IMG/VR virus record: IMGVR_UViG_3300012122_000001
Location: 8,726-72,725 of that record
Reading direction: 5' to 3' (one strand)
DNA length: 64,000 nucleotides
Origin: a virus
Lineage: Duplodnaviria > Caudoviricetes
The first letter of the stretch is position 1; every line of letters starts with the position of its first letter. The notes below the pieces were generated by a model. It ran no database searches, was not told the origin of the DNA, and saw nothing but the letters and a program-made list of their open reading frames with translations. Below, in pieces: positions 3,667 to 28,541 of the stretch. The position numbers and the translations under genes were made by a program.

Positions 3667-5208
3667 ATGAGCTCGACCGTCGAAGGGCTCGAGCGCGGAG
3701 TCATCGGCACGGACAAAACCATCCAGAGAATGCACCGTCTGGTCGCGCTGGGAAAGCTCGACCCGACGATCCAGAAGATCGCGACCTGGATCCGCCTGGG
3801 CGTGCCCAAGGACGTGCGCGCCTCGACGAAGCTCGCGGCCGACGCGATCTTCAACTGGGTTCAGAAGCACGGTCTCTTCCAGCGCGACCCGTTCCAGATC
3901 GAGAAGATCGAGCATCCTATCGAAGCGATGCGGCCGATCATCGAGGCGCGCAAGGCCGGGACGTACACCGGACCGGCGCTCTTCGTCGGCGACTGCGACA
4001 CGATGGCGGGCGTGTACACGGCGAGTTTGCTCGGCGTGCTCGGCTTCCAGTATTCCTTCGAAACCGCCAAGGTCGATCCGGATCGCCCCGACGAGTTCTC
4101 TCACGTCTGGGTCTCCGCGCGGATCGGGAACGAGTGGTACCCGCTCGACCCGTCGACGCGCGGGGCATATCCCGGCTGGCGTCCTCCGGTCAAGCCGGAG
4201 CAGTTCAAACGCTGGCCGGAGGGACCGATCGAAGACGTCGTGAAAGGGTCCGACATGAGCGCATTCAACAGCGGCATGGGGGATAACGGAGAAGACGAAG
4301 GCGGCGACGAGCCCGTCATCGAGAACAACGATTCCCCCCTCACCGGAGTCGACGCCGAGTACGCCCAGGACTACATCGGATACGGGATCCCCAGGGACTT
4401 CGGCAGCGGCCCAGGCGTGATCCCGCCCGGCAACTTCGAGAGCCTCCAGCTCCTTCCGCCGCACGACACGCAGATCCCGGCGGCCGACCTGGAGCGGGAC
4501 ATGCATCTGCTCAAGGCGGCGCCGCGCCTGGACCCGTCCGAACGGATCCAGAGCCTCGCCGGTCAGCCGAACGACCACGGCAACCCCTACTATCGCGGGG
4601 GTGGTCGCCAGCCCTACATCAAGGTCGAGCGCAAGATGTACCCGCCCGGCTCGCGCTGGAACGAGCCGTACGGCAAGGACACCATCCGCTACCAGAAAAC
4701 CGACAAGTACATTTCCGTCAAGAGTCCCGAAACACCCGAAAGACGAGTGGAGGTCAAGATGGACCAGCCGATGCTGATCCGCAGGAGAAACGTCATGACG
4801 CCCCCTCAGCGGATCCCGTTCGGCGCAATGGACGGCATGGGCGACATCGATCCCAATACCGGGATCATGACCTTCGGCTCGACGCCCGCGCCCACGGCGA
4901 CGCAGACGGCAGCGGCGACCGCCGGAACGTCCGTCTGGGATTCGATCCTGGGCGCATTCTCGTCCGTCGCGAAGGCCGCCGGAACGATCGTTCCGTCGGT
5001 GCTCCAGTCGAAGACCGCGCAGGCCGTCGCGAGCGCGACGAACCGTCTCGCGGGCTCGAACGTGCTGACGGCCGGGCAGCTCACCAACCCGACGCCCTGG
5101 TACAAGAACCCCGTCACGATCGGCCTGGGGCTCGCCACGCTCGGCGGCCTGGGCTACGTCGTCATCAAGATGCGCCCCGGCATGGGCGGCCGGAGGCGTC
5201 GCCGGTAG
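3667..5208 (+). CDS. transglutaminase-like (papain-fold Cys-His-Asp) enzyme with C-terminal membrane anchor; candidate maturation protease
   Basis: GDCD, SHVW and PLDPS triad motifs; C-terminal hydrophobic helix IGLGLATLGGLGYVVI plus RRRRR tail. Confidence 0.8.
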   Translation: MSSTVEGLERGVIGTDKTIQRMHRLVALGKLDPTIQKIATWIRLGVPKDVRASTKLAADAIFNWVQKHGLFQRDPFQIEKIEHPIEAMRPIIEARKAGTYTGPALFVGDCDTMAGVYTASLLGVLGFQYSFETAKVDPDRPDEFSHVWVSARIGNEWYPLDPSTRGAYPGWRPPVKPEQFKRWPEGPIEDVVKGSDMSAFNSGMGDNGEDEGGDEPVIENNDSPLTGVDAEYAQDYIGYGIPRDFGSGPGVIPPGNFESLQLLPPHDTQIPAADLERDMHLLKAAPRLDPSERIQSLAGQPNDHGNPYYRGGGRQPYIKVERKMYPPGSRWNEPYGKDTIRYQKTDKYISVKSPETPERRVEVKMDQPMLIRRRNVMTPPQRIPFGAMDGMGDIDPNTGIMTFGSTPAPTATQTAAATAGTSVWDSILGAFSSVAKAAGTIVPSVLQSKTAQAVASATNRLAGSNVLTAGQLTNPTPWYKNPVTIGLGLATLGGLGYVVIKMRPGMGGRRRRR

Positions 5209-5213
5209 GTTCG

Positions 5214-5495
5214 ATGCGCTACATCCGCTACGTCAAGAGACCCGGCATCGGAGATTCCGTCACCGACGGACTCACGACCGGCTTCACCGCTTCGGTCGCC
5301 GAGGCCCTGGAGCCGAAGATCCGGACCATCCTGAAGGAGGACATCCTTCCCATGGTGATGGTGGGTCTCGTCGCGGGCGCCGTAGCGGCGTCGGTCATCG
5401 GATCCTGGTTCGCTTCGCGCCCCTCGCGGTCCGGAGTCCGGTCGAACCCGGTCTCCAGGATCCACATCCCTCTGCGTCGCCGGAGGACCGCATGA
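5214..5495 (+). CDS. small membrane protein
   Basis: One hydrophobic helix, N-terminal GIGD motif, basic C-terminus with RSNP. Confidence 0.75.
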   Translation: MRYIRYVKRPGIGDSVTDGLTTGFTASVAEALEPKIRTILKEDILPMVMVGLVAGAVAASVIGSWFASRPSRSGVRSNPVSRIHIPLRRRRTA

Positions 5496-8400
5496 GCTAC
5501 CAGGATCTCAAGTCCAGGATGGTCGCGCACCTCAAGAAGTGGGCGCGTGGAATGGTTGATTCCGGCGAGGGCATGAACTTCAGCATCGAGTCGGCGATTT
5601 ACTGGTTCGCGAACGACTACCACAACGGCGGCGGAAGCGAGCTCTACCAGATCCTCTCGACCTCGAAATTTCGTCCCGGTCCGTCTCATCGGTCGGTCGA
5701 CGATGAAGGCGACGAGATCGACAAAATGATGTACGAGGAGCTGGAGCGGTACTTCATCCCAAAAGGAAGAGCGAGGAACAACGGTCACACGGGCGTTCGA
5801 AAGAACCCTCCGTCCTTCATCCTGATCGACAAAGAGACCGGACTCGTCGTGTACACGAAGCGGGCGACCGGCGTCGGCAGCGCAGCGATCTCGGCTTGCG
5901 TGAAGCGTGGTCACGAGCTCGCGGACCAGCACAACCGCGTCTACACCGTCTTCCTGGACATCCGCGGCCTCTCTCGTGGCATGAAGGTCCATGTCCCGGC
6001 GATCTATGCGCTCGGGATCACCGAAGAGATCCATCCGGGCGGTCAGTCCGTCCGTCCGAATTCTCGCGGCGCCGTACGGAAGAACATCTTCACCTTCAAC
6101 AATCCGAAGCTGAAGTTCAGCGATCTCTCGGTCGGCGAGACGTTCGTGTTCGCCTCCCAGGACGATCCCAAGTTCCTGACCAGCGGAATGGCGCGCGGTC
6201 CGTGGATCAAGCGCAGCGCCAGGACGTACGAACACGTCGACGACGTCGGCAAGCAGATCTCGGAGCGGAGGTACGGCGGCGGCCATATCGCCGTCGGAAG
6301 CGCCTCCGTCGGAGTGAAGCGCATGAGCCTCGGACGGGAACTGCCGAAGCTCTGCCCTCACTGCGACGCCTCGTATATCGGCACGCCCCAGATGCACAAG
6401 TTCGAGTGCGCTCCCCAGGGCGGAGCGAACCTGTACCAGGAGAACCCGCGCCGCAGATCCGCTCGTCGGAACCCCACGATGGGATCCTACGAGGTCTTCG
6501 TCGGGAACATCGGGCAGGTCTACGACGGGAACGATCGGGCGAAGGCGCAGCACTCCTTCGACTACTACGTCGCCATGTCGAAGCGTACCAGCGGTCGCGC
6601 GAGCGGCGAGGATGTCGCCCTCCTCTGTGAAGGCGAACTCAGCCAGGAGTACATCGGAAGCAAGGGACGCGAGCGCGGAGATCATCGGCGCGGCGTCCGC
6701 CGGAACATCTTCACCTTCAACAATCCTCCGTCCGGCCCGGCAGATCCGGCCGCGGCGCGCGAGCTCGAGGTCTACATCGAGAACGACGCCGACCTCTACC
6801 GGCAGCAGTTCGTCCCGATCGTGAAGAATCTGATGCTGAAGCGCCGGAAGGGCGTCTACAACCGCGAGCTGGCGGTCAAGCTCTTCATGTACCTGATGGA
6901 CGCGGGCGCGAAGAAGTACGTCGCCGAGTACGTCCGCTCGTCGTCGCCCGGCGCGCCGATGCCGAAGATCGACGGCACCTTCAACAAGAACACGCGCCTG
7001 ATGGCCGCGCGGTCCTTCCTGGAGTCCTTCGAAGGCGAGGCGGAGCTCGGGAACTACGACCGGATGATCGGTCCGGTCTCGAACCCTCGGGGGGCAAACG
7101 TGCGGAAGAATATCTTCACCTTCAACAACCCGAAGCAGCGTCCTCTGAACGAGATGGAGAACGCTGCCAGTCTGGTCGGCCTGACCGTCACGACCTGGGC
7201 GCCGGGCGACGGCGTGACGCGCTACCGCTTCTTCAAGGCAGGCGGAAGTCGGTACGCCGACTATCACCAGGGCGGCGCTCTCTACACGGCGCTCGGCCGG
7301 AAGGAAGCGATCGCGTTCATCAAGTCGTACGGCGTCGGCCGTAGCCGGATGAATCCGCTGAACCAGAAAGAAATCGAGCAGATGCGCGATCGCGAGAGGT
7401 TCTACGTCGGTCGCTCTCAGAAGTACGGTTCCGAGGGGAAGGAAGCGGATGCCGCTCACTTCCGAGGCGCCGCGCAGGAGAGTCGGAACATTCGCGAGCG
7501 TCACCATGCCAAGGGCACGGATTGGTGGCCGAATCCCCCTGTCTGCTCGAACCCGCTCGTCCGCGGCGACAAGCTTCCTCACAACCTCCGGATGGAAGTG
7601 CGGAATCGGTTCATCTACCGCTGGACGTCCGACAACGATCGTCGCGCCGAAGTCTACGGCCTCTGCCCGCACTGCAAGACGCGGGGCGGGAAGCCCTCCG
7701 AGACCAACATCGCTTGCCGTCAGGTCCACCCGACGATCCCGCTTCAGACGGACGAGCAGTGGCTCAAGACGCACGCCTTCCACGTCACGAAGGCGGGTCG
7801 TCTCAGCGAGCGGCATAACCATGCGGAGCCGGGCTACATGGCCGACGACGAGACCAGGAAGAATCCGATGTCGCGCCGCGAAGCCGCAGGAGAGATCCGG
7901 GAGATCCGCGGCGCGAGAAGCAAGATGCGCTACTTCCATCGGCTCGGCCGTCCGGAAGCTGCCGAGTTCCAGGACGGATACGCTCACGGAGTCGCAGGAG
8001 CGGTTTACCGCCGCGGTCCGAAGTCCGCGCGTCGTGTCGTCGATCGCGCGGTCCGCTCGAATCCGCTCCTCCAGACCGTGATGCTGGCGAATCCTGGATC
8101 GGTGAAGACTTTCAGCGAGATGCAGGACGTGGGCAAGGCGAAGTACGTTGTGAACTATCACGACGGAGTGAAGGTGCATCGCGACGGTAGCCCGTTTTTC
8201 GACATCGCCATTTTCAGCAATCGGGCTAAGAAAGATCAGTTCGTCAGGAAGTTGGAGAGCCTTGGATTTACTCGGGGCGCCCTTCGGAACCCGCCGATCT
8301 CCACGCAGTGGGATCGGATGACGCGCCGCCAGCGCGAGGCGCTCCTGGAGATCGTCGGCTACGATCGTGACTTCTCCGGCGGCATGACGCTGTCCACCTG

Positions 8401-9133
8401 GGGCGCGCTCTCTCCCGCCGCGAAGCGGAAGCTCGAGGCTCAGTGGCTCGACACGACGTCAAGCGGCGGAACGACGCGCCGTCGGCGCCGCTCGCCGGTC
8501 GCGGTGAATCCGCTGACCAGGAAAGAAGCCGCGTCGACGGTCAGAAGCGCAAAGTTCGACCTTCGATACGGGTCGGCGTTCGCGCCCGGACACACGCGAT
8601 CCGGCTCGGCCGGTCGCGCGTTCGGGAAGGCAACGGTCGTTCGTGACTTCGGCCCCAGGTCAGCCGGTCGGGCCGCGAGCAAGATCATGAAGCGTTCCGT
8701 CGACCTGACGCACGCCGTTCGTACGAACCCCGGCATCAAGTACCCGAAACCCGGCACGAAGATGACCGTCGCCCAGGCGATGGACCTCGCGCGCCGGATC
8801 GGCAACAAGGATCTGATCAAGCAGTGCGAGGAAGCCGCGAAGCTCCAGAAGGTCGCGAACCGCGGCGCGAAGGTCGTCATCTGGAAGGAGCTGCCGATCG
8901 GCTCGCCGAACAAGATCGACATGGTGACGGCCTTCGCCCATTACGGCGACTCTCCGGAGACGATGTACCGGCCGCCGAAGGGCTCGAAGAAGGGCCCGCA
9001 TATGTACCGCCACAAATGGGGCGAGGGAACCGGCAAGAAGAAGTCCGTGCCGATCCTGGCGGCGCCCGGCGGCAAAGCACTCATCACGCTGATGGGCAGC
9101 GACCAGAAGACCGGCGATTGGATGAGAGGCTAG
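5492..9133 (+). CDS. 1213-aa mosaic (polyvalent-like) protein with 16 NP motifs
   Basis: ATGA-coupled to the previous gene; unrelated ~50-100-aa modules separated by basic linkers ending in NP; R(K/R)NIFTFNNP occurs three times. Confidence 0.85.
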   Translation: MSYQDLKSRMVAHLKKWARGMVDSGEGMNFSIESAIYWFANDYHNGGGSELYQILSTSKFRPGPSHRSVDDEGDEIDKMMYEELERYFIPKGRARNNGHTGVRKNPPSFILIDKETGLVVYTKRATGVGSAAISACVKRGHELADQHNRVYTVFLDIRGLSRGMKVHVPAIYALGITEEIHPGGQSVRPNSRGAVRKNIFTFNNPKLKFSDLSVGETFVFASQDDPKFLTSGMARGPWIKRSARTYEHVDDVGKQISERRYGGGHIAVGSASVGVKRMSLGRELPKLCPHCDASYIGTPQMHKFECAPQGGANLYQENPRRRSARRNPTMGSYEVFVGNIGQVYDGNDRAKAQHSFDYYVAMSKRTSGRASGEDVALLCEGELSQEYIGSKGRERGDHRRGVRRNIFTFNNPPSGPADPAAARELEVYIENDADLYRQQFVPIVKNLMLKRRKGVYNRELAVKLFMYLMDAGAKKYVAEYVRSSSPGAPMPKIDGTFNKNTRLMAARSFLESFEGEAELGNYDRMIGPVSNPRGANVRKNIFTFNNPKQRPLNEMENAASLVGLTVTTWAPGDGVTRYRFFKAGGSRYADYHQGGALYTALGRKEAIAFIKSYGVGRSRMNPLNQKEIEQMRDRERFYVGRSQKYGSEGKEADAAHFRGAAQESRNIRERHHAKGTDWWPNPPVCSNPLVRGDKLPHNLRMEVRNRFIYRWTSDNDRRAEVYGLCPHCKTRGGKPSETNIACRQVHPTIPLQTDEQWLKTHAFHVTKAGRLSERHNHAEPGYMADDETRKNPMSRREAAGEIREIRGARSKMRYFHRLGRPEAAEFQDGYAHGVAGAVYRRGPKSARRVVDRAVRSNPLLQTVMLANPGSVKTFSEMQDVGKAKYVVNYHDGVKVHRDGSPFFDIAIFSNRAKKDQFVRKLESLGFTRGALRNPPISTQWDRMTRRQREALLEIVGYDRDFSGGMTLSTWGALSPAAKRKLEAQWLDTTSSGGTTRRRRRSPVAVNPLTRKEAASTVRSAKFDLRYGSAFAPGHTRSGSAGRAFGKATVVRDFGPRSAGRAASKIMKRSVDLTHAVRTNPGIKYPKPGTKMTVAQAMDLARRIGNKDLIKQCEEAAKLQKVANRGAKVVIWKELPIGSPNKIDMVTAFAHYGDSPETMYRPPKGSKKGPHMYRHKWGEGTGKKKSVPILAAPGGKALITLMGSDQKTGDWMRG
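6077..7132 (+). repeat. three ~30-bp direct repeats encoding R(K/R)NIFTFNNP
   Basis: Near-identical copies of cggaagaacatcttcaccttcaacaatcc at ~6077, ~6698 and ~7103. Confidence 0.9.
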
Positions 9134-9143
9134 GAGAATTCAC

Positions 9144-10262
9144 ATGATCGGAGCACTTGTATTTGCGAACCCCGGACGGCCTGTAGCCGCTCGGAGGAGA
9201 CGTTCGCGTTCCCGTACCGCCCGCACGACGGGCAGGAGAGTCAAGATGGCACGCACCCGTTCGCGCCGTCGCACCGGGCGGCGCATCCGGCGGAATGCCA
9301 AGGGGCATTTCGTCACCCGGCGCCGGTCGACCCGGCGTCGGCGTCGGAATCCCAGCGGCTTCATCAAGGTCGGCCGCCGCTGGAAGAAGATCACGAAGTA
9401 CGCCCGTCGGCGCCGTCGGGGCAGCCGGAAGGGCCAGATCCGGGCCTTCAAGTTCCCGAAGCGGTATCGGCGGAGCCGCCGGGTTCGTCGGAACCCCGTG
9501 GTCGTCGCCAACCCGCGTCGGAGCCGTAGCCGTCGGGCGCGGCGCAACCCGTATCGGCGTCATCGCCGGTACGTCCGTCGGAATCCCAGCGTCGCGTATC
9601 GGCTGACGTCGGATCCGGTCGCGGCGATCAAGTCGGCGATCATGTCCGCGTTCTCGATGGACACCGTCGAGACGCTGTTCCACATGGGCCTGGGCTTCGG
9701 CTCGTCCATCGTGGTCAGCCGGACGCTGATCAAGCAGTGGCTGCCGGTCCTCGGCGAGACCGCTCTCGGCCGGGTCGGCGGCACGTTCGGGACCGGCGTG
9801 GTCCTGACGGCGCTGTCGAGCTTCCTCAAGAACTCGAGCCTCACGGCCCGGTTCCTGACCGGCTCGCTGTTCGCCACCTTCTGGCAGGGCCTGTCCGAAG
9901 TCGTGTCGGCCTACCAGCCTCAGCTCAAGGAGTTCATCCCGACGCTGTCGGGCGCTCCGGAGACCGAGGAGTTCCGTCGCGCGATCGAGCGGGAAGTTCT
10001 CCGCGAGCTCAAGGGCGGCGTGAACGAATACCTGCCCGCGGCGGGCGCCGAGGGGTACTCGACGTACCTCCGCCCGGCCGGGATCGAGTACCTCCGTCCC
10101 GCCGGGACGGAAGCGTACCTCACCGAAGTGGGCGCGGAGCGCGCCCAGGGAGGCATGGGCGCCTTCCTGACCGACCGCGAGGTCAGTCGCGTCGAAGCCC
10201 GGCCCAGCGGGGTCGGCGAGGACGAGTTCGGCAGGGGCGACACCCTGCCGGAGCGGTTCTAG
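9144..10262 (+). CDS. Arg-rich (protamine-like) core/membrane protein
   Basis: First ~150 aa very Arg-rich with 6 NP motifs (mostly RRNP), then hydrophobic helices, then (E/T/A)YLxxxG repeats; directly upstream of the capsid gene. Confidence 0.8.
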   Translation: MIGALVFANPGRPVAARRRRSRSRTARTTGRRVKMARTRSRRRTGRRIRRNAKGHFVTRRRSTRRRRRNPSGFIKVGRRWKKITKYARRRRRGSRKGQIRAFKFPKRYRRSRRVRRNPVVVANPRRSRSRRARRNPYRRHRRYVRRNPSVAYRLTSDPVAAIKSAIMSAFSMDTVETLFHMGLGFGSSIVVSRTLIKQWLPVLGETALGRVGGTFGTGVVLTALSSFLKNSSLTARFLTGSLFATFWQGLSEVVSAYQPQLKEFIPTLSGAPETEEFRRAIEREVLRELKGGVNEYLPAAGAEGYSTYLRPAGIEYLRPAGTEAYLTEVGAERAQGGMGAFLTDREVSRVEARPSGVGEDEFGRGDTLPERF

Positions 10263-10277
10263 GCATCAATCAAGGAA

Positions 10278-10421
10278 GCCCTGGGAGGGAAACCTCCCAG
10301 GGCCTCCCCCAGGGCGGCCCAGTGCGGGCCTTCCTGGGGGAGTCGGGCAGGTAAGCACCAGCCCGTCCCGGTGGGATGTAGCAGCAGGCCGAGAGGCCGC
10401 TTGAGGTCATTGTGACCTCAA
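10278..10421 (+). other. structured intergenic leader upstream of the capsid gene
   Basis: Hairpins GCCCTGGGAGG-GAAA-CCTCCCAGGGC, CTCCCCCAGG...CCTGGGGGAG, GGCC-GAGA-GGCC and TTGAGGTCA-TTG-TGACCTCAA. Confidence 0.7.
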
Positions 10422-10457
10422 CCCGCAGAATGGTGCTTGATCAAGGAGATCGAGAGT

Positions 10458-11096
10458 ATGCCTCCTCCCATGGATGCGGGCGCGCCGATCCAGGTCGTGC
10501 AGCCCTACTACAAGATCGTGCAGGGCGTTCCTGCGGCGATCGTCCGGTCGTACAAGCAGCCCCTGTACGACTCGGAAGTGATCCTCTCCGCGTCCCCGAC
10601 GCGGGAGTTCACGCTGTACTCGAAGCCCGTCGGCCAGATGCTGAACGACGCGGCGACGACCAAGACGTTCGTCCACTCGAACCAGACGCAGGCCGGGTCG
10701 CTCGGCACGCCTCTGAGCTTCGACGTGTACGGCTTCAACAAGCGCGTCTGGGGCGGCGTCGCGACCAAGGTCATCACCATCGGCAACTCGACCCTGGTCG
10801 AGGCCGCGGGCGTGGCCGAGGTCATCTTCGGTCAGGACACGAAGTTCCTGACGATCCCGATCGAAGACGTGCCGTCCGGCGTGGACTACGAGGGCATGGG
10901 CGCGACCGATGCGCCGCACATCGGCCTCGGGCAGTCCGACAACCTGTACCGCTTCGACGTGGGCGGTCGGGCGCTGCACATCAACTCGACGGAGCCGTAT
11001 CAGGTCAAGATCTCCTGGCCGTCGAGCCTCTCCGGCATCACCGGCAACCTGCTGTTCCGGTGGTTCATGCGCGGAATCCTTTACAAGGGCGTCTAG
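10458..11096 (+). CDS. putative single jelly-roll major capsid protein
   Basis: AAGGAG SD supports the start at 10458. Beta-rich, with a PLYD...PVGQ...KT...N...G.LGTP.SF.V.G pattern and C-terminal YQVKISWP...MRGILYK strands, recalled from Thermus P23-77/IN93-type capsid proteins (not searched). Confidence 0.6.
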   Translation: MPPPMDAGAPIQVVQPYYKIVQGVPAAIVRSYKQPLYDSEVILSASPTREFTLYSKPVGQMLNDAATTKTFVHSNQTQAGSLGTPLSFDVYGFNKRVWGGVATKVITIGNSTLVEAAGVAEVIFGQDTKFLTIPIEDVPSGVDYEGMGATDAPHIGLGQSDNLYRFDVGGRALHINSTEPYQVKISWPSSLSGITGNLLFRWFMRGILYKGV

Positions 11097-11129
11097 AAAA
11101 AACGTCCTTGTGCCTTCAGGCGCAACTTC

Positions 11130-11156
11130 GGGTGGCCCCTTCGGGGGCCATCCCTT
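11130..11156 (+). terminator. UUCG hairpin after the capsid gene (partial terminator or mRNA stabiliser)
   Basis: GGGTGGCCCC-TTCG-GGGGCCATCC 10-bp stem; weak U-tract. Confidence 0.6.
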
Positions 11157-11238
11157 GATGAGCCCGACGAAGAGTCAGTAGCGTCCCGCACTGTTCGCGG
11201 TCCGCTTCCCTGCTGAGTTAGCTCGGAAGGAGACGACG

Positions 11239-12192
11239 ATGAGCTGGTCCCAGGTTCCGACATTCCTCCGCATCTCGGACAAGGATCCCGATCCCAAGAA
11301 GCGCGGGATCATCTACATGAACCCGGCGAAGGACTGGGTTCAGCCGTTCGAGCTGACGGTTTCGAAGCCGAACCAAGTCATCCGTCTCGCCGCGGGCGAG
11401 CAGCGCGGGCCCTTCCCGCTGACGGCGCAGTACGACGGCCCGATCGAGGTCTTCTACGTCAAGGCCAACGTCTACGAGGACGACGACGGGGAGCCCGGCG
11501 CCCTGGTGAACTCGTACGACATCGACGTGCTCCTGGAGCATCCGGGCAAGCGGATCCAGTTCATGAACCGCTTCGTCCCGCTCGACGCGATGTCCGGAAA
11601 CGCCGGGCTGCCGTACGTCCTGCCGGAGACGATCTTCATCCCGCCGGTCCAGTCGCTCAACCTGACGCTCGTCAACAACGATCTCGCCAACGCGCGGCAC
11701 GTCGAGTTCGTCCTGGGCGGCATCAAGTTCTACCCGAACATGGCGCCGTCCGAGATCCGCGGCGAGACCTGGAAGTACGTCGACCGCCGCGAGCGGACCT
11801 ACGCCTACCTCATGACCACCGACGAGGAAGCCGTCGTCGCCGCCTCGGCCACCACGCCCTTCTTCATGACGATCCCCGACAACGCGGATCTCGAGGTCTT
11901 CAAGCTGACGGCCAAGGCGACCGCCGCCTTCCGCTGCCGCGTGCGCGACGGTCAGAACGACCGCGCCCTCACCGGAGACCTCGTCCACTCGGCGCTGCTC
12001 TTCGGCGGCCACCAGCCGCTCTCGGGCAACGCTGCGGTCACCGGATCCGGCGGTCTCTTCCCGGCACGCTGGGCGACCTCGTGGCTCATCCGGCGGTCGA
12101 CGAAGGTCCAGCTCGATCTCCAGGACATCAGCGCCGCGGAGAACGAGATCAAGGTCATCTTCGGAGGCAGAAAGATCAGCTATGTCAGCTAA
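11239..12192 (+). CDS. putative double jelly-roll capsid protein
   Basis: Visible internal duplication: the halves end in VEFVLGGIKFY and IKVIFGGRKISY, each preceded by G...P...LP/W...I...L.L.N/D; all-beta pattern. Confidence 0.6.
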   Translation: MSWSQVPTFLRISDKDPDPKKRGIIYMNPAKDWVQPFELTVSKPNQVIRLAAGEQRGPFPLTAQYDGPIEVFYVKANVYEDDDGEPGALVNSYDIDVLLEHPGKRIQFMNRFVPLDAMSGNAGLPYVLPETIFIPPVQSLNLTLVNNDLANARHVEFVLGGIKFYPNMAPSEIRGETWKYVDRRERTYAYLMTTDEEAVVAASATTPFFMTIPDNADLEVFKLTAKATAAFRCRVRDGQNDRALTGDLVHSALLFGGHQPLSGNAAVTGSGGLFPARWATSWLIRRSTKVQLDLQDISAAENEIKVIFGGRKISYVS

Positions 12193-12892
12193 AAATCCGC
12201 CTCGCCCTCCTCGGCGCCCCAGGCGCGGAGGAATGGGCGATGACCAGTACTTCTACGAGGGATGGCGCGACGCAGGCCAGGGGGAACCCAGGCCGATGGA
12301 CGTCGTGTCCGATCCCAACTGCCCGCCGCCCAAGGAAGCGCAGCAGTGCGGGAAGGTCAAGCTCAACTGGGTGAAGTTCCCGGCCTTCAACCAGCCGCCG
12401 TTCTTCGCCAAGCCGCTCATCAAGGCCCGGTCGTCGCTCGTGATCCCGGCCGGGGACATCGCGCTCATCTTCGACCGCGAGATCGCCGATCGCCAGCGTG
12501 CGATCGTCTCTCTCGTCGGGATCGACGTCGCGCCGATCGCGCCGCTCCTGAACTCGCAGCTTGAGTTCTGGTTCCAACTCGGCCGCCAGGGCGTTCCCGA
12601 AGTTTCGAAGAACGTCATTCCGGTCTGGGACGACCAGAATCCGACCGGCTACGGCGGGTCGACCCCGATCCAGTCCGGCCGGACGACCGTGTGGCCCGGT
12701 GTCGCGACCCCGGAGGAGTTCTTCAAGAACGGCCTCCAGTTCGGCGTACGCGGCCGGGGCCAGCTCCAGGGACTCATCGAGAACAAGTCCGCCGTCGACG
12801 TCACGGTCCGCGGGATCCTGGGTTACTACTACTACTGGTCCAGCGGCCCTGGTGGTGCCTCGGAGTTCGAGGCCGGAGATTTCCAGGCGTAG
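12182..12892 (+). CDS. putative penton / minor jelly-roll protein with basic leader
   Basis: Leader MSAKNPPRPPRRPRRGGMGD, then a beta-rich domain ending VDVTVRGILGYYYYW. Confidence 0.5.
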   Translation: MSAKNPPRPPRRPRRGGMGDDQYFYEGWRDAGQGEPRPMDVVSDPNCPPPKEAQQCGKVKLNWVKFPAFNQPPFFAKPLIKARSSLVIPAGDIALIFDREIADRQRAIVSLVGIDVAPIAPLLNSQLEFWFQLGRQGVPEVSKNVIPVWDDQNPTGYGGSTPIQSGRTTVWPGVATPEEFFKNGLQFGVRGRGQLQGLIENKSAVDVTVRGILGYYYYWSSGPGGASEFEAGDFQA

Positions 12893-12901
12893 GGAGAATC
12901 G

Positions 12902-13381: not shown

Positions 13382-13645
13382 ATGGAGAAGCTCTGCAAGG
13401 ATCCGTCCTGTATGGTCGAGGTCCGCGACGGTGAGGCGGCGTCTGAGAAGCTCTTCCTTGATCAGACAAACGGTCGCGTGATCTCCCTGGTGCGCCACGA
13501 GGTCTGCGCGGAGAAGTACACGACGCCGGGATCAAGGTTCCGGCGGATCTCCCAGGACGAGAAGAAGGCGCTGCTGTCCCCCGCGTCGGCTCTCAAGAAC
13601 GAGCTCGCTGCGAGGCAGCGCATGAAAGTCCAGGTGGTCAAGTGA
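13382..13645 (+). CDS. small Zn-binding protein Z1
   Basis: CKDPSC...HEVC motif; paralog-like to 14868. Confidence 0.6.
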   Translation: MEKLCKDPSCMVEVRDGEAASEKLFLDQTNGRVISLVRHEVCAEKYTTPGSRFRRISQDEKKALLSPASALKNELAARQRMKVQVVK

Positions 13646-14859
13646 GCAGGCAGAGAAGCTCGATTGAATGGCAGGATATCGTCGCGGCGACATTTGTCGT
13701 CGGGAAGGATCTCGTCGAGTGCGACTACCTGACCCACCAGGAGGCGATCGACAATCTCCCGGTATCGGGCGGCGGCGTCTACACACTGCCTGGGACATAC
13801 TCCCAGGCGGTCACGATCACGATGCCTGACAAGGACGTCACGTTCGAGTTTGCGTCGGGCGTGACCATGTCGATCGGCTCGACCGTCATCGCGCTCTTCA
13901 CGGTTCCGGACGGCCTCACGGATAGGCGTACCTACTGCTTCTATGGTCTTACGGCCACCGCTGGAGATGTTGCCGATCAGACCTTCATGGAGCTGGCGGA
14001 GACGAACGCGCAGGGCATCGTGAAGTTCTACAACTGCACGATGACCGGCTGGAACGTCATCTTCGACGTCTCCGCTTCCGATCTCGACTACATCTTCCCG
14101 GTCGATATGTACCTCTACGGGTGCCGTCTCGAGGCTGCGGTCGGCCTGGGCGACAACACCATCGTCAAGACTGTGGCGGCAGCGGGAGCCTTTACGAGCG
14201 GCGTCGTGCTGTGGGCGCAGGACACGATGCTCAACACGGAGCAGGCCAGCGTTGCTGTCTGGAGCAGCTTCAATTACGGCTTCGACCTGATTTCTGACGG
14301 AACCGTCTATGCTCTTTTCCAGGGCCCGTGCAAGCTCGACGGCCTTCAGGGGCCGCTCCTCCTGTACGGCTCCGGCGTCTTCGGGATGTGGGCACTCGAA
14401 ATATTCGGGGGAAACTACTGGGCGCGATCTGAGTGGATTGGCGGCGCGCTTTCTTATGGTGCGCTCACCATTTCGACCTCGATCTATCAGTTTGACAACA
14501 ACCTTCAGCAGGCTGGCACCATTATCGTCAATGCCCCCTACTGCAAAATCAACGTCAGGTACTCGGACCTTGGAGGCTCACCTCCTGCGGTCGAGGTCGA
14601 CCTTCTTTCCACCGCGCATCGTTGTGTGATTTCTGGAAACTTCGGAGATAACACTACCGCTGCGGTCCGCGTTGCCAGCGTCTACAACAGGTTCATCGGA
14701 TGTCTCTTCGAGTCGTCGGGCGCCCACGGGACGATCGTGGAGACCGGTGCCGCCGACAACAACATCGGCGTCGGCTGCGCGGGACTCTCCAGTGGCGGCG
14801 GGATGACGATCATCGGCGCCGGTTCGGTGTTCGACCTGACCCTTGCTAACCTTCCGTAG
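13642..14859 (+). CDS. beta-helix-like receptor-binding/spike protein
   Basis: Repeating short beta-strand/turn pattern (FYNCT, LYGCR, FIGCL); more A/T-ending codons than flanking genes. Confidence 0.5.
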   Translation: MSRQRSSIEWQDIVAATFVVGKDLVECDYLTHQEAIDNLPVSGGGVYTLPGTYSQAVTITMPDKDVTFEFASGVTMSIGSTVIALFTVPDGLTDRRTYCFYGLTATAGDVADQTFMELAETNAQGIVKFYNCTMTGWNVIFDVSASDLDYIFPVDMYLYGCRLEAAVGLGDNTIVKTVAAAGAFTSGVVLWAQDTMLNTEQASVAVWSSFNYGFDLISDGTVYALFQGPCKLDGLQGPLLLYGSGVFGMWALEIFGGNYWARSEWIGGALSYGALTISTSIYQFDNNLQQAGTIIVNAPYCKINVRYSDLGGSPPAVEVDLLSTAHRCVISGNFGDNTTAAVRVASVYNRFIGCLFESSGAHGTIVETGAADNNIGVGCAGLSSGGGMTIIGAGSVFDLTLANLP

Positions 14860-14867
14860 GAGGAGCT

Positions 14868-16334: not shown

Positions 16335-16335
16335 C

Positions 16336-17974: not shown

Positions 17975-17978
17975 CGAT

Positions 17979-20900: not shown

Positions 20901-20971
20901 AGATTGAACGATTCAGACGTGCATTACGGTAAAATTAGCTATGCGACCGGGGACAGGAAAGGATTGGTAGG

Positions 20972-21477: not shown

Positions 21478-21525
21478 GGAGCGTTGTAACCGCCCGTCCT
21501 TAACCGGGCGGTTGTAACTCGGTGA

Positions 21526-22312: not shown

Positions 22313-22313
22313 G

Positions 22314-22607
22314 ATGGACGAGATCCTTGGAGCTCTTGACCCTTCAACGCTTGGCATGGGCGTCGACGCTTCGGCTGTTGTCGCAGTGTCGGAAGCGACG
22401 AATTTGATCAAAGGAGACATGCGGAAGTGGGGTCTCGATGCCGTCGTGGGGAGGTTCTATCCGGCAATCCCGTTTTTGATTGCTTTTGGCCTGGGTCTGT
22501 TGTACGGGAATGCACTCTGGTCCGACGCTTTATGGTATTCTGGGAAGATAGGGCTGCTATCCAGCTTTGCTTGGCAAGGCTATAGGGTATCGGTGAAGGG
22601 CAAATGA
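22314..22607 (+). CDS. holin-like membrane protein
   Basis: 97 aa with 2-3 hydrophobic helices and a basic C-terminus. Confidence 0.55.
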   Translation: MDEILGALDPSTLGMGVDASAVVAVSEATNLIKGDMRKWGLDAVVGRFYPAIPFLIAFGLGLLYGNALWSDALWYSGKIGLLSSFAWQGYRVSVKGK

Positions 22608-23947
22608 GAATTTATGTGCCGATGGAATCGGGGCTGAACCCCCGAGAGATCGCCGCCATGCGGCGCCTCTCGAGGAGTTCGCTCGCGATCATTGCCGACG
22701 AGCTTCACGAGCCGACCTCCAGGAGCACCGTGAAGAGGGTTCTCTCCTCCCGCGATCCGGAGCGGGAAGTGATCAGGCAGGTCGCCGAAGAGGTCCAGCG
22801 CGCCGTCTGGGCCATCAGCACCGTCCGTCACGCCGGACTCGGGGACCACGAGTACGACGACATGGAGCTCATGCCCGACATCGGCTTCGGAAGCTTCTTC
22901 AAGAAGGTCGCCAAGAAGATCAAGGGCGTCGCCAAGAAGGTCGTCGACATCCACAAGAAGGTCTTCGACAAGACCGTCAAGCCCGTCATCAAAGCGACCG
23001 TGAAGGTCGCGAAGAAGTCCGTCGAGATCACCAAGAAGACCGTGAAAAAGGTGATCGAGACGCAGAAGAAGGTCATCAAGAAGATCGGGAAGGCGATCAA
23101 ACCGTACATCCCGATCATCCTAACGGTCGTGGGCGCGGTGCTGGCGCCGTTCACCGGAGGCGCCTCCCTGGCGGTCGCCGCTGCCCTGAACGCGGGCTAC
23201 ATGCTCGCCATGAAGGCGAAGGCAGCGAGAGCCGCGAAGAAGGAAGGCCGCGCAGCAGCCGCCCAGATGCAGGCCGAGGTGAGCGCGCAGACGGCCGACC
23301 TGAACCGCCAGCTCGACCAGCTCTTCACGGAGAACCAGGGGGTCTTTGCCGCCGCAGGTATCTCCCAGGCGGCCTGGAACGCGATGAGCCTCGAGCAGCG
23401 CCTCGCGGTCGTCGAGCGGATCAACTCCGGCAACATGCCGTCGTCGCAGTCGAATGCCGACGCCGCCACGGAGGCCCAGGGGAATCCTCCGACGACCCAG
23501 ACGCAGACGTGGCGGGATGCGATCAATTCCTCGCCGGTCATGCAGCAGTGGCGTGACGAGGCCGGAGACTCCGACACCGCGACCGCCGGAGTCCAGACCC
23601 CGACCGGGACGTACGACGTCTACGTCGAAGGCCGGAAGGTCGGGACCGCCCAGACGCTCGACGAGGCGTCCTCGATCATGGCGAACAACTCGAAGGCCGG
23701 GGACCGGGTCGAGATCGTGCTCAACGGTCGCTCCCTGGGCCTCAAGATCGTGACGGGCGGCGGCGGGGTCATCTCGATCCCCGCCGGTCAGGCCGATGCG
23801 GTCCGCGCGATGTCGAGGTCCGAAGTCGACGCGATGCTCTCCAGGGCTGGTCAGACAACGACCGCTTCGAGCGGATCCTCCGGCGGGCTCGTGCTTGCCC
23901 TCGCCGTCCCGGCGGCGATCCTCTTTGCCATGCATTCGAAGGGTTAG
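22604..23947 (+). CDS. membrane-penetration / DNA-pilot-like virion protein
   Basis: GLGD motif, Lys-rich amphipathic helix GFGSFFKKVAKKIKGVAKKVV..., LAPFTGGASL hydrophobic segment, C-terminal anchor. Confidence 0.65.
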   Translation: MRIYVPMESGLNPREIAAMRRLSRSSLAIIADELHEPTSRSTVKRVLSSRDPEREVIRQVAEEVQRAVWAISTVRHAGLGDHEYDDMELMPDIGFGSFFKKVAKKIKGVAKKVVDIHKKVFDKTVKPVIKATVKVAKKSVEITKKTVKKVIETQKKVIKKIGKAIKPYIPIILTVVGAVLAPFTGGASLAVAAALNAGYMLAMKAKAARAAKKEGRAAAAQMQAEVSAQTADLNRQLDQLFTENQGVFAAAGISQAAWNAMSLEQRLAVVERINSGNMPSSQSNADAATEAQGNPPTTQTQTWRDAINSSPVMQQWRDEAGDSDTATAGVQTPTGTYDVYVEGRKVGTAQTLDEASSIMANNSKAGDRVEIVLNGRSLGLKIVTGGGGVISIPAGQADAVRAMSRSEVDAMLSRAGQTTTASSGSSGGLVLALAVPAAILFAMHSKG

Positions 23948-23950
23948 GCG

Positions 23951-24622
23951 ATGGAAAACAATCTTCCCGCGGCTGCACATGCCTTCGCGACGGCCTTCGT
24001 CGCCGACATGGAGGCCGCCCGGCCGCTCCGTGCCGCGCTCATCCGGAAGCAGATCAACCGGGAAGGCATCACGCGCATCGTCACCAGGGACCTGGATGCA
24101 GCGCGCCTGGGGAGGCGCGGCCCCGCGCTCTTCCCGAACCTCCGCGCCGTCGCGAAGGAGTTCCTGGACCAGGAGAAGCGGCGCGCGCCGTACACCGGGA
24201 TCTCCCAGTTCCACAACCGCGCGGCCGGGTACATGCAGGTCGCTCCGGCGTACGAGCGCGAGGTCTACGGCCTGGGGCAGTGGGACGCGATCATCGGCGC
24301 GATCGGCGCTGCGGCAGGAGCGGCTTCGAGCATCTACGGCGCCAAGATCACCGCCGACGCCCAGAAGCAGCTTCTCAACCTCGAGCAGCAGAAGGTCAAC
24401 GCCCAGATCCAGATCGCCGAGATGCAAGCGAAAGCCGCCCAGGTCCAGCTCGCCGCGGCGAACGCTGCTGCATCCGGGACTCCGGTGAAGATCGGTCCGG
24501 ACGGCCTGCCGGTTCCTTACACCGAGGCTTTCGGTCCAGAGATCGGCGGAGTTCCCGTCATCCCGGCCGTCGCCGCCGCGTTCGCGCTCGCCATCGCCGG
24601 ATACTTCGCCTTCAAGAAATAG
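23951..24622 (+). CDS. virion membrane protein
   Basis: Basic N-half, YGLGQW motif, Ala/Gly-rich helix, C-terminal TM plus KK. Confidence 0.7.
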   Translation: MENNLPAAAHAFATAFVADMEAARPLRAALIRKQINREGITRIVTRDLDAARLGRRGPALFPNLRAVAKEFLDQEKRRAPYTGISQFHNRAAGYMQVAPAYEREVYGLGQWDAIIGAIGAAAGAASSIYGAKITADAQKQLLNLEQQKVNAQIQIAEMQAKAAQVQLAAANAAASGTPVKIGPDGLPVPYTEAFGPEIGGVPVIPAVAAAFALAIAGYFAFKK

Positions 24623-24635
24623 AAAGGGATTTTCC

Positions 24636-25382
24636 ATGCCTGCTTTGAAGATGAACCAGATCGCAGGTCGGATGAAGGTCATCCGCGCGCCCCAGGTGAT
24701 GTATGTCCAGGAGGCGACGTTCATCCCGTCCGGAATGCATGGGATCTCCAGTTCCGCCAGGGAGGCCGTCGTCTCGTCGCTCTCGAAGGAGATGGCCGCG
24801 CGCGGAATTCCGCCGGGCCGGGCCCGCCACGTCGTCAAGATGGCCTCGATGCGGATCCACTCGCGCTGGAACCGCGGGCGCCACCTCGGCTGGGGCAAAG
24901 GCCTGGGCGACGACGAAACGTACGGCCCTCCGCTGCCGAACGACATGGTCGCGGCGAACAAGCTCGCCCTGGTCCAGACCAAGGGCACCGAGTACCAGAG
25001 GCAGCACGCGGCCTTCATCAATCAGCTCCCGTCCTCGGGGGCGAGCGACAGCGACAAGCTCAAGGTCCGCAACGGCATCGAGAACCTCTACAACGAGTGG
25101 ACCGCGTTCGCCGTCGACCTGAAGGGCGGCCTGCCGCCGTTCGAGTGGAACCGGACGGATCCCGTCGACGCGATCCTGATCGCCGTCCGGGACGATCTCC
25201 GCGACACAGTGAACCTGATCGACGCGAACAAAGCCCAGGCCGTTCTCGCCAAGCAGATCAAGGAGCTCGTGAAGCCGGGCTCGCTGCCCGGACTGCCGAA
25301 CCTCCCGAAGATGGACCTTCCCTGGTACGTCTGGGTCGGGGGAGCCATCGCCGCGGCTGTCGCGGCAAAGTACGCGCTCTAA
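24636..25382 (+). CDS. virion membrane protein
   Basis: Basic N-third, KGLGDD motif, C-terminal TM WYVWVGGAIAAAVAAK. Confidence 0.7.
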   Translation: MPALKMNQIAGRMKVIRAPQVMYVQEATFIPSGMHGISSSAREAVVSSLSKEMAARGIPPGRARHVVKMASMRIHSRWNRGRHLGWGKGLGDDETYGPPLPNDMVAANKLALVQTKGTEYQRQHAAFINQLPSSGASDSDKLKVRNGIENLYNEWTAFAVDLKGGLPPFEWNRTDPVDAILIAVRDDLRDTVNLIDANKAQAVLAKQIKELVKPGSLPGLPNLPKMDLPWYVWVGGAIAAAVAAKYAL

Positions 25383-25399
25383 AATAGGAAGGGGTCTTT

Positions 25400-25648
25400 A
25401 TGAATCCGCTGTTTCTCCTCGGCGCCGCGGCGGTCGCCACCGCCGTCATGAAGGGTAAGAAGAACGGCCCGCCGGAAGTCCCGCCGGAGCTCGTCGGCGC
25501 CGCCGCGGGAATCGCCCGGAGCCAGATCGCCCAGGGCGCCACTCCGGAGGAGGCCGCCGCGTACGCCGCGGACAAGATCGCCGAGACCGGAGGAGGCTTC
25601 TGGAAGGAAGGAAGCCGGAAGTCCGGCGGCTCCATGGTGAGGTTCTAG
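25400..25648 (+). CDS. small membrane protein
   Basis: N-terminal hydrophobic helix; AGGAAGG SD. Confidence 0.7.
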   Translation: MNPLFLLGAAAVATAVMKGKKNGPPEVPPELVGAAAGIARSQIAQGATPEEAAAYAADKIAETGGGFWKEGSRKSGGSMVRF

Positions 25649-25663
25649 CTCTCTTTGTAGTGC

Positions 25664-25692
25664 ATGACAATTTGACCTCCGGTCAGTAGAAT
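25664..25692 (+). promoter_or_regulatory. sigma70-like promoter
   Basis: ATGACA-N17-TAGAAT upstream of the GT4 gene. Confidence 0.55.
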
Positions 25693-25745
25693 CATGCAGG
25701 CGCCCGGTAGAGTGCCGGGCGAAGGAAGAAGAAGGAGAGAGCGGT

Positions 25746-27086: not shown

Positions 27087-27361
27087 TGAAGAACCTCAGC
27101 ACGGCGATCGAAGTCGCGGCGGACTACGCCCTGCACCTCCACAAGCAGGACGGCGTTCCGAAGCAGAAGGCGATTGCCGCCGGGGCCGCCTCGGTCGTCC
27201 GTGCAGTCAGAGCCACCCGCGTCAACGACGCGAACGGCTTCATCGTGCCGCCCAGGAAGTACGTCAAGGATGCGGGCGTCGGATTCTCCGGCGACGCGAT
27301 CATGGGAGCGGGATCGCTCCTGTCTGCGTTCGGTTGGATCAAGAATCTCGTGGGAGGGTAG
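27083..27361 (+). CDS. hypothetical protein with amphipathic C-terminus
   Basis: ATGA coupling; ends LLSAFGWIKNLVGG. Confidence 0.65.
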   Translation: MMKNLSTAIEVAADYALHLHKQDGVPKQKAIAAGAASVVRAVRATRVNDANGFIVPPRKYVKDAGVGFSGDAIMGAGSLLSAFGWIKNLVGG

Positions 27362-27362
27362 G

Positions 27363-27863
27363 GTGAGCGAAGCGGAAGAAAACGGCGAAGCGGACTTCCC
27401 GTCCGAAAAGGAAATCAAGGAAGCCTTCCCGAAGCTCGACTCCAGTAAAGTGAGCGAGCTCTTCAACATCCTCAAGAACGCCACGAGCCCCGACGCCCAC
27501 GACGACGATCCGGACGACGCGATGGAGAAGGCCAACGCGATCCTCGACGGCCACGGGGTCGAAGGGATCAAGGCCGAAGACGGATATCAGGTCGACCGCT
27601 TCTGGCGCGACACGATTCTCATCTACGTCAACCAGGGCGACACCTACGAAACGACGATCTGCTACGACACCGAAGAGGGCGCCTTCTTCGTCGGCTCCTG
27701 GGGCGACTTCGTGGAGGAATGGGAGAAGGGCGGCGAGGAGGACGAGGACGAAGAAGAGGGCGAGGACGAAGAAGAGGAAGAGGAGTCCGAGGACGAAGAG
27801 GACGAGGAAGAGGATGACGACGACGAGACCTCAACCCTCGACGAAGAGGTCAAGGAGAACTAG
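27363..27863 (+). CDS. acidic protein with poly-D/E tail
   Basis: GTG start at 27363; core GHGVE...YVNQGDTY.TT..YD...F.VGSWGD recalled from phage hypothetical proteins; ~30-residue D/E tract. Confidence 0.75.
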   Translation: MSEAEENGEADFPSEKEIKEAFPKLDSSKVSELFNILKNATSPDAHDDDPDDAMEKANAILDGHGVEGIKAEDGYQVDRFWRDTILIYVNQGDTYETTICYDTEEGAFFVGSWGDFVEEWEKGGEEDEDEEEGEDEEEEEESEDEEDEEEDDDDETSTLDEEVKEN

Positions 27864-28541
27864 ATGTCTCTGACCGCAGAACAGTACCGGGCCCAGCTCG
27901 AAGCCCAGCGCGCGCTGGTCTACCGCGGCGTCCACCCGTCGGTCGCCGGTCAGCTTGTCCGGAGGGCCGCCCAGCGCGTCGCCCAGCGTGGCGGCATGGG
28001 CTGCAACGGGGACGACTGCTGCGGATCCTGTCGTGAAAACGGCCTGGGCCGGATCCAGATGCGGAGTCTCCGTCGGGACCTCGACCCGACGATCAAGCCT
28101 CGGCCGGTCATGGCCGGAGAGCAGTGCGTCCGGATCCAGGAGGTCCCTGGGGACGAGACGCGCCTCTACCGGCAGCTCGACGACTACCGCAGTCGCGGCT
28201 GGAACGTCATGGAGATCCAGAAGACCAAAGGCTTCCCGTCGGTCGCCGTCTACTGGGCCTGCCCGCCCGGCCGGGTGCCGATGGAGTCCCAGGGGCAGAT
28301 CCTCCAGTCGCAGGCCTGGGGCGCCCCGCTCTACGTCGCAGGCGTCGGTGAAGGCGCCACCCCCGACGTTCTCGCCCAGATGCGCGCGTACGGTGACCTG
28401 GAATCCGTCAAGGCCGTCCGCGAGGCGATCACGCCCTGGCTCTGGGTCACGAGTCTGATCGGCTTCGGTATGGGCCTCATGAACACCCGCCGGATCGCGA
28501 TCATGTTCCGGAAGCACCTGGGCGGAAGGAAGCGCGCGTGA
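27864..28541 (+). CDS. virion membrane protein
   Basis: GGMGC, NGLGR and AGVGE motifs; C-terminal TM and basic tail. Confidence 0.7.
   Translation: MSLTAEQYRAQLEAQRALVYRGVHPSVAGQLVRRAAQRVAQRGGMGCNGDDCCGSCRENGLGRIQMRSLRRDLDPTIKPRPVMAGEQCVRIQEVPGDETRLYRQLDDYRSRGWNVMEIQKTKGFPSVAVYWACPPGRVPMESQGQILQSQAWGAPLYVAGVGEGATPDVLAQMRAYGDLESVKAVREAITPWLWVTSLIGFGMGLMNTRRIAIMFRKHLGGRKRA

Follow-up and report, generated by a model that had tools for sequence, protein, structure and literature searches.

The IMG/VR virus record IMGVR_UViG_3300012122_000001 is a 72,725-bp virus genome with direct terminal repeats, rated complete. The window analysed here covers its bases 8726-72725 (64 kb); coordinates below are window positions, and genes are named by their first nucleotide. 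About 43 genes occupy the + strand in a single block (874-33154), with the remaining genes on the - strand. Proteins of this virion block share a short recurrent motif, Gly-Leu/Met-Gly, usually followed by Asp or Gln, which is very probably a functional, conserved junction signal. We propose that a virion maturation protease cuts at this motif in a clade of prokaryotic double jelly-roll viruses, the candidate enzyme being the transglutaminase-fold domain of gene 3667. The proteins and sites concerned are the following.

3667..5208, + strand: 513-aa protein, candidate maturation protease, with a transglutaminase-fold Cys-His-Asp domain from aa 1 to ~190
4273..4281, + strand: GMG(D) site of 3667, aa 203-205; conserved in 8/10 relatives, flank identity 0.29
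4834..4842, + strand: GMG(D) site of 3667, aa 390-392; G[LM]G[DQ] in 7/10 relatives
5214..5495, + strand: 93-aa single-pass membrane protein; GIG(D) at aa 11, nt 5244-5252
9144..10262, + strand: 372-aa protamine-like, highly basic protein; GVG(E) at aa 356, nt 10209-10217
12182..12892, + strand: 236-aa penton-like protein; GMG(D) at aa 17, nt 12230-12238, then a conserved core
22604..23947, + strand: 447-aa protein; GLG(D) at aa 78, nt 22835-22843, and GFG at aa 94, nt 22883-22891
23951..24622, + strand: 223-aa protein; GLG(Q) at aa 107, nt 24269-24277
24636..25382, + strand: 248-aa protein; GLG(DD) at aa 89, nt 24900-24908, then an acidic body
27864..28541, + strand: 225-aa Cys-rich protein; GMG(C) at aa 44, nt 27993-28001, and GLG(R) at aa 60, nt 28041-28049

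Sites and leaders of the virion block

The relatives used for comparison comprised seven IMG/VR loci with capsid proteins 71-76% identical to that of the window, five of which were extended; a profile locus scan with the close capsid alignment recovered the same seven. More distant relatives were L023, L024 and L025 (penton-like protein 55% identical), L008 (capsid protein 45% identical), L010 and L011 (30-32%) and L026, known only via its transglutaminase-like domain (39% identical).

Two of the proteins carry the motif close to their N-terminus. The membrane protein 5214 starts with a 10-residue basic leader (net +4 over the 13 residues to the site end), and such a leader followed by G[LMIF]GD or GMGQ was found in 9/9 relatives having the gene. 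In the penton-like protein 12182 the leader is rich in Pro and Arg and 16 residues long (net +6 across the 19 residues to the site end). Its site, GG[MLI]G, was present in all 26 rows of alignment A3 that reach it, a count that includes many rows called from the motif's own Met, and it was also found in L008, L010 (as three tandem copies), L011 and L023-L025.

Longer leaders precede the motif in the 22604-24636 group of genes and in 27864. The 109-residue basic leader of 23951 (net +6) ends in a site kept as G[LM][GS][QD] in 6/6 relatives, after which come a hydrophobic part rich in Gly and Ala and a transmembrane segment at the C-terminus. In 24636, the 91-residue leader (net +12) contains a helical cassette of ~35 residues, and the aa 89 site is present in 6/6 relatives at a flank identity of only 0.14. 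The same cassette was recovered in the 27864 leader (iterated local search, E = 2e-10; net +5 over 46 residues), where both sites are conserved in L004, G001 and G002; in four relatives the cassette, ending in the motif, is present as a tandem duplicate. Leader segments are also exchanged, as the pre-site segment of 23951 recurs in the L004 ortholog of 24636 and in L024, having moved between the 23951 and 24636 families. The clearest junction was seen between a 163-aa L026 protein and the L007 ortholog of 24636, which are 56% identical (E = 2e-30) in an alignment starting exactly at the motif, at residue 8 of the former and residue 89 of the latter, behind unrelated leaders of 7 and ~88 residues.

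The protein 22604 has paired sites: an 80-residue leader, GLG(D), a 16-residue acidic spacer and GFG, directly after which begins a Lys-rich amphipathic helix followed by hydrophobic segments. Paired sites around an acidic spacer were also found in L004, G002 and L024. In 9144 the arrangement is reversed. The first ~339 residues of this protein include long Arg runs and carry a net charge of +63, suggesting a core protein that condenses DNA, a kind that would be unusual in a prokaryotic jelly-roll virus; the aa 356 site (GVG, GMG or GIG in 11/12 relatives) stands near the C-terminus and is followed by a 14-residue acidic tail. Finally, 3667 has its first site ~15 residues past the end of the catalytic domain, just upstream of which stand-alone homologs stop, and its second, with 8 further instances in the logo set described below, ahead of an indel-rich linker and the membrane anchor.

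Enrichment, conservation and anatomy of the motif

The sequence-only reading that drew attention to these proteins had described a motif G-[LMI]-G-[D/Q/A/C] recurring in at least eight virion proteins, nine of which it listed, and every string given is present in the gene concerned. Enrichment was measured by shuffling each protein separately, the two proteomes amounting to 10,006 aa (+ strand) and 10,249 aa (- strand). The full motif, G[LMI]G[DQAC], was observed 13 times on the + strand for 2.3 expected, against 2 for 1.5 on the - strand, so that the excess foreseen for the + strand was found there only, confined to the virion block. The tripeptide G[LMI]G gave 20 observed for 12.2 expected on the + strand (- strand 6 for 8.3), and GMG alone 8 for 1.8 (- strand 1 for 1.2). 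Neither G.G overall (93 for 87 on the + strand, 64 for 56 on the - strand) nor GSG, GTG, GAG and GVG were enriched.

Since the fourth-position set had been picked after seeing the data, we ran an unbiased scan of ~480,000 four-residue patterns. G[LMI]GD (8 observed, 0.63 expected, p = 3e-7) ranked eleventh on the + strand; the best - strand pattern reached only p = 4e-6. The patterns outranking it were low-complexity RRRR or repeats concentrated in one or two proteins, such as WAVG (the BNR repeats of 18837) and R[KR]NP (5492 and 9144), leaving G[LMI]GD as the top multi-protein pattern. After Bonferroni correction its p value is ~0.16; the single-genome statistics are thus suggestive rather than decisive, and the case is carried by conservation. 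Among the relatives, L024 had 8 instances of G[LM]G[DQEN] for 0.6 expected, and L026 had 6 of the broader G[LMIV]G[DQEN] for 1.2 expected, the G-polar-G control being flat in both.

Conservation separated the sites from the other matches. The 11 sites in 3667, 5214, 9144, 12182, 22604, 23951, 24636 and 27864 are kept despite diverged or indel-rich flanks. Positional conservation in homologs thus held for most of the earlier list, seven of its nine proteins having a well-supported site as listed. It failed in the small jelly-roll-like protein 10437-11096 (listed as 10458), whose GMGA and GLGQ (aa 153/163, 10893..10931, + strand) read GQAV or GWGV in most relatives and lie in flanks at least 0.7 identical, as expected of a folded core. 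In 9144, the listed GGMGA (aa 337, nt 10152-10160) is kept in only 5/12 relatives, the well-conserved aa 356 site being absent from that list.

Other matches were also set aside. The GIG(D) of the 672-aa protein 874-2892 (aa 546, 2509..2517, + strand) lacks its first Gly in 6/6 relatives and lies inside a conserved block, and the GLG(D) of 13642-14859 (aa 168, 14143..14151, + strand), missing in the sole homolog found, was taken as a chance match. Matches at aa 486, 494 and 505 of 3667 and at aa 160 and 202 of 27864 are either not conserved or in hydrophobic anchors, and aa 182 of 9144 belongs to a hydrophobic Gly-zipper that is not conserved. Such unconserved matches are probably due to chance or structure.

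We consider it very improbable that the motif as a whole is a chance or compositional artefact of a Gly-rich proteome and a GC-rich genome. The motif is short, its fourth-position set was post hoc, the corrected p value is borderline and several listed matches are not conserved, as such an artefact would have it; but neither G-x-G overall nor G-polar-G is in excess, no surplus is seen on the - strand, and the motif is kept in indel-rich, fast-evolving linkers down to 30-40% identity, which largely refutes this explanation.

A second recurrent motif, Arg-[Arg/Lys/Ser]-Asn-Pro, was noticed in some of the same proteins: once near the C-terminus of 5214, where it is conserved in orthologs, seven times in the 1213-aa protein 5492 (5492-9133) and four times in the basic part of 9144. 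In the form R[KR]NP it tops all four-residue patterns of the + strand in enrichment (7 observed, 0.17 expected), and it may be another processing or structural signal.

A logo was derived from 82 distinct instances, gathered as G-[LMIVF]-[GS] near the 11 aligned sites; this search pattern predetermines P3 and the residues allowed at P2 and P1, and the P labels assume a cut after the second Gly. It reads as follows.

P4: Gly, Ala or Ser
P3: Gly 100%
P2: Leu 44%, Met 38%, Val 11%, Ile 4%, Phe 4%
P1: Gly 89%, Ser 11%
P1': Asp 35%, Gln 20%, Gly 10%, Glu 9%

Positions past P1' are acidic. The change of composition noticed in the sequence-only reading was borne out, leaders having a net charge of +3 to +12 and the ten residues after the motif averaging -1.7 versus +0.7 before it. 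Proteins whose bodies are unrelated carry the motif at an N-terminal junction, within a linker or ahead of a C-terminal tail, and the leaders (2 to ~110 residues) are basic, variable and exchangeable. This combination of variable, exchangeable leaders, one fixed tripeptide and unrelated conserved bodies resembles removable pro-pieces.

The codons show at which level the motif is selected. The central codon of the 12182 site is CTC in L004, ATC in L008 and CTC in L011, the L008 ortholog of 5214 reads GLGQ with a CTA Leu codon, and Gly and Leu codons vary among sites; selection therefore acts on the protein rather than on a start codon or DNA element. Gene callers do begin many 12182 homologs at the GMG Met (forms of 216-225 aa), and the upstream Gly codons can resemble a ribosome-binding site, as though this Met were an internal or the true start and the leaders untranslated or alternative isoforms. 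We give this explanation hardly any credence: Leu is as common as Met, the 12182 leader always keeps its reading frame, showing synonymous variation and indels whose lengths are multiples of three, a conserved upstream ATG overlaps the stop codon of the capsid gene, and further sites lie deep within long proteins (3667, 9144).

The motif might instead be an uncleaved hinge or a docking signal to a common assembly partner, such as the capsid lattice, the membrane or an adaptor role of 3667. Its tandem copies could add avidity, and L010 and L011 keep it behind leaders of only 2-3 residues. On the other side stand its N-terminal, internal and pre-tail placement in proteins with unrelated bodies, the free variation of leader length and sequence around a fixed motif, as in disposable pro-pieces, and the invariant catalytic triad of the associated enzyme, so that we regard the uncleaved motif as unlikely. 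Judged from the sequence comparisons, the motif is probably, if not firmly, a cleavage site.

Gene 3667 as candidate maturation protease

Gene 3667 is located near the start of the + block, after 874-2892 and two small genes. In its product the Cys-His-Asp domain is followed by the linker with the two sites, then by a segment rich in Thr, Ala and Pro, a transmembrane helix (aa 482-500) and a tail of poly-Arg. Across 10 sequences, stand-alone homologs among them, residues G108, D109, C110, D111, H146 and D161 do not vary (alignments A2 and A7), the triad C110, H146 and D161 being in Cys-His-Asp order within G-x-C and S-H motifs. ESM Atlas's own model of aa 1-200 matched Transglut_core clusters with TM scores of 0.77-0.81 over 169-179 residues, and its feature score for the domain against Transglut_core was 0.94. 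A profile of nine 3667 orthologs (A6) retrieved P0198-P0200 at E ~1e-30, and these score 29-34 bits against PF01841 (cut-off 23). Profile searches of the PDB with the domain (A2, A6, A7) gave no solved relative, and a word-indexed search with the N-domain for shorter proteins returned fragments only. The domain belongs to the transglutaminase fold, clan CA type, its peptidase role being putative.

Stand-alone forms of the domain (170-173 aa) occupy the same syntenic position in distant relatives. A stand-alone transglutaminase-like gene was observed at L026:1688-2200 and on the contigs of P0198 and P0199, fused membrane-anchored forms coexisting with it in the clade. A split gene is not proposed, since a 246-aa L026 protein showed no detectable similarity to the C-terminal region of 3667 (E = 0.054).

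The families searched and a Pfam scan of 30 + strand proteins detected no other protease family in the genome. PF00770 (C5) and PF02902 (C48) gave no match at E <= 1 in the complete genome, nor did the genome match the S78 prohead protease PF04586 (assemblin-type and T4 gp21-type enzymes were not searched) or Peptidase_C93 (LapG type, PF06035). A Peptidase_C39 match in 35283-37268 on the - strand (window 36999-37115; 11.5 bits, E = 0.01, cut-off 22) was discarded as probably spurious, the N-terminal sequence having no convincing Cys/His arrangement.

On these grounds we propose the following pathway. The signal would be formed by a small residue, Gly, Leu/Met (less often Val/Ile/Phe), Gly (rarely Ser) and usually Asp/Gln, followed by an acidic run, and a cut after the second Gly would remove the basic N-terminal leaders. 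The penton-like protein and several membrane proteins would thereby lose masking segments, as would the Lys-rich amphipathic helix of 22604; the latter protein would behave as a protein VI-like lytic factor whose acidic mask is removed by two cuts. In 9144 the removable part would be the acidic C-terminal tail, detached from the DNA-condensing protein. A hydrophobic S2 pocket of the 3667 domain would take the Leu/Met, a hydrophobic P2 residue being the usual main specificity determinant of papain-like peptidases. Self-cleavage at 3667's own two sites would detach the enzyme from its membrane anchor, since everything from the linker through the transmembrane helix to the poly-Arg tail follows the second site. 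The assignment of 3667 as the enzyme cutting the motif is tentative; for the joint claim, that the sites are cleaved and that 3667 cuts them, the sequence evidence leaves the balance about even.

Several points weigh against this pathway. The 2-3-residue leaders of L010 and L011 fit a defined new N-terminus and a docking motif equally well. The 3667 protein of the window had no match to PF01841 Transglut_core, two orthologs reaching only E = 0.05, and the argument from a hydrophobic S2 pocket is general knowledge of papain-like enzymes fitted to the logo. Enrichment is borderline after correction in this single genome and individually not significant in L008, L010 and L011, and the relatives are non-independent samples. 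The fold family itself, a papain-like clan, contains peptidases, cross-linkers and deamidases as well as inactive members (PMC10318531). We found no paper linking transglutaminase-like proteins to virion maturation.

The functional mixture of the Transglut_core superfamily (PMC10318531) leaves room for a host protease or an unrecognised viral protein to cleave the sites, the 3667 domain then serving in envelope degradation at entry or in protein cross-linking or deamidation. A novel protease could hide among the virion-block proteins, most of which have no recognisable family, and a membrane-anchored papain-fold enzyme together with a probable inner membrane would suit a lytic role, as for the membrane-associated lytic enzymes of PRD1 type. 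We nevertheless judge another protease unlikely, as the 3667 domain, whether fused or stand-alone, stays at the head of the morphogenesis module even in very divergent relatives, is flanked by two conserved sites and is accompanied by no other detected protease family. It is scarcely plausible that 3667 is a true transglutaminase for which a Gln after the motif marks acyl-donor cross-linking sites. Although the fold family includes cross-linkers and Gln is the second commonest residue after the motif (20%), the commonest, Asp (35%), cannot be an acyl donor, and Gly, Glu, His and Arg also occur there.

The virus and its comparison with known systems

The capsid protein, which lacks the motif, is encoded between the small jelly-roll-like and penton-like genes.

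11239..12192, + strand: 317-aa double jelly-roll capsid protein (AF2 model and VIA-align), without the motif

Its AF2 model, obtained from a 65-sequence alignment, reached a pLDDT of 91.6, while a model from only eight close sequences (pLDDT 49) was unusable. VIA-align matched the model to the capsid protein of STIV (Z 11.2, 240 aa aligned), PRD1 P3 (Z 9.9, 246 aa) and PM2 P2 (Z 9.0, 223 aa), the further best structural matches being the capsid proteins of FLiP, phiCjT23 and PBCV-1. Cellular double jelly-roll homologs, GH172/DUF2961 (Z ~11) and PNGase F, also matched. Capsid proteins of this virus family fall into roughly 200 clusters. Foldseek alone gave low TM scores and mixed beta-sandwich matches, the fold being resolved by VIA-align: two jelly-roll domains, and not HK97. 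Given these structural matches, the modelled capsid protein identifies a tail-less-type, double jelly-roll virus with prokaryotic gene organisation. To our knowledge, its 72.7-kb genome is much larger than those of the known prokaryotic double jelly-roll viruses; relatives of 67-71 kb exist, and the clade members examined span at least 33 kb to 73 kb. In L025 only, a 282-aa gene with faint LAGLIDADG matches (L025:8103-8951) lies between the small jelly-roll-like and capsid genes, with an HNH gene upstream on the contig, and is probably a homing endonuclease insertion.

Searches with PHROGs and Pfam on 20 virion-block proteins gave almost no matches, and most + strand proteins, including those in the Pfam scan of 30, had no PHROGs or Pfam match; one of these 30 matched GP88 (PF17338) at E = 6e-19 (alignment A4). 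Megablast and tblastn against a phage collection found no matches. The 687-aa product of 18837-20900 (+ strand) combines a Calx-beta domain with six BNR/Ycf48-like propeller repeats (period ~41 residues, WAVG in each) and is likely a receptor-binding or glycan-binding spike. Genes examined on the - strand include ThyX, methyltransferases, glycosyltransferases and a HerA-like ATPase, and the genome has many glycosyltransferase and methyltransferase genes.

Near-identical sequence is present in freshwater-sediment and soil metagenomes, sequencing runs with a small share not being counted as evidence of habitat. In one freshwater-sediment metatranscriptome run, 47% of the words sampled from window 9144-12892 were found; the capsid-region genes may be transcribed in nature, DNA carry-over being an alternative.

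Adenoviruses, giant viruses, virophages and polintons characteristically mature by proteolysis at a consensus site, which is usually explained by capture of a Ulp1-like protease in a common eukaryotic-virus ancestor. Proteases related to adenain are found in virophages, polintons and giant viruses (e.g. ASFV pS273R and poxvirus I7). The gene for the Ulp1-like protease has been presented as what chiefly sets polintons and their descendants apart from tectiviruses, an acquisition of eukaryotic lineages that tectiviruses lack, and prokaryotic double jelly-roll viruses are said to have no enzyme of this kind (PMC4405056). A survey of these viruses from 2018 makes no mention of a protease (PMC5894146). 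If true, our proposal would give the prokaryotic branch of this virus kingdom its first maturation protease and its first cleavage code, a clear case of convergent evolution in which the protease fold is unrelated and the site code differs while the substrates are analogous. Precursor processing would then be a recurring answer to the assembly of large membrane-containing jelly-roll particles. It would also supply a testable cleavage code for annotating the mature particle proteins of a poorly understood soil/sediment clade, and a function for transglutaminase-like proteins, which are common but unexplained in virus genomes.

Several known systems share parts of this arrangement. The prohead proteases of tailed phages likewise use one viral protease to process many head proteins at a short consensus and remove N-terminal targeting leaders, T4 gp21 cutting after L/I-x-E and phiKZ gp175 after S/A/G-x-E; they differ by HK97-fold capsids, assemblin or S78 serine proteases and another motif. 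Peptidase_C93 (LapG) is a transglutaminase-fold, Cys-His-Asp, site-specific endoprotease with a motif of small residues. It is, however, a periplasmic, calcium-dependent enzyme whose target is a di-alanine motif of a single adhesin; it is not known to act in virus particles, and its family profile matches nothing here. The double-glycine leaders processed by papain-like C39 cysteine peptidases are also short N-terminal leaders ending in a Gly-containing motif, but theirs is Gly-Gly with hydrophobic residues at -4, -7 and -12, unlike the Leu/Met at P2 in our sites, which are found without an ABC exporter context. PRD1, PM2, STIV and other prokaryotic double jelly-roll viruses share the capsid fold (Z 9-11), have genes for small jelly-roll-like and penton-like proteins beside the capsid gene and encode many small membrane proteins. 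They are much smaller than this 72.7-kb genome with its direct terminal repeats, and no maturation protease is described for them (PMC5894146, PMC4405056).

Adenovirus also has a double jelly-roll capsid and many particle proteins bearing a short Gly-containing consensus; its basic pro-segments, its basic core protein that condenses DNA and its masked amphipathic helix likewise have counterparts here, as does the placing of a cysteine protease gene in the morphogenesis module. The adenovirus-like precursor and maturation programme suggested by the sequence-only reading gains from the enrichment, the conservation, the junction positions and the gene of cysteine-protease fold in the module, but not from any homology to adenain. 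The parallel it drew with adenain sites did not stand in detail. Adenain recognises (M/I/L)-X-G-G|X or (M/I/L)-X-G-X|G, with a hydrophobic P4, Gly at P2 and Gly at P1 or P1'; in our 82 instances the hydrophobic residue lies between two glycines, so that no register fits, and the positions equivalent to the adenain P4 hold G/A/S or G/P/N/R in either register. Adenain is, in addition, a Peptidase_C5 of clan CE, while no C5/C48 enzyme was detected here and the candidate has the Cys-His-Asp order of the transglutaminase/papain fold; gene organisation is prokaryotic and the consensus is another one. With this candidate fold, the lack of C5/C48 and the mismatched consensus, the resemblance to adenovirus is one of functional analogy and not of homology. 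We put forward, as a reading about as likely as not, that this clade independently evolved an adenovirus-like maturation in which a membrane-tethered transglutaminase-fold protease releases itself and trims, at Gly-Leu/Met-Gly, the penton-like protein, several membrane proteins and a protamine-like protein that loses its acidic tail.

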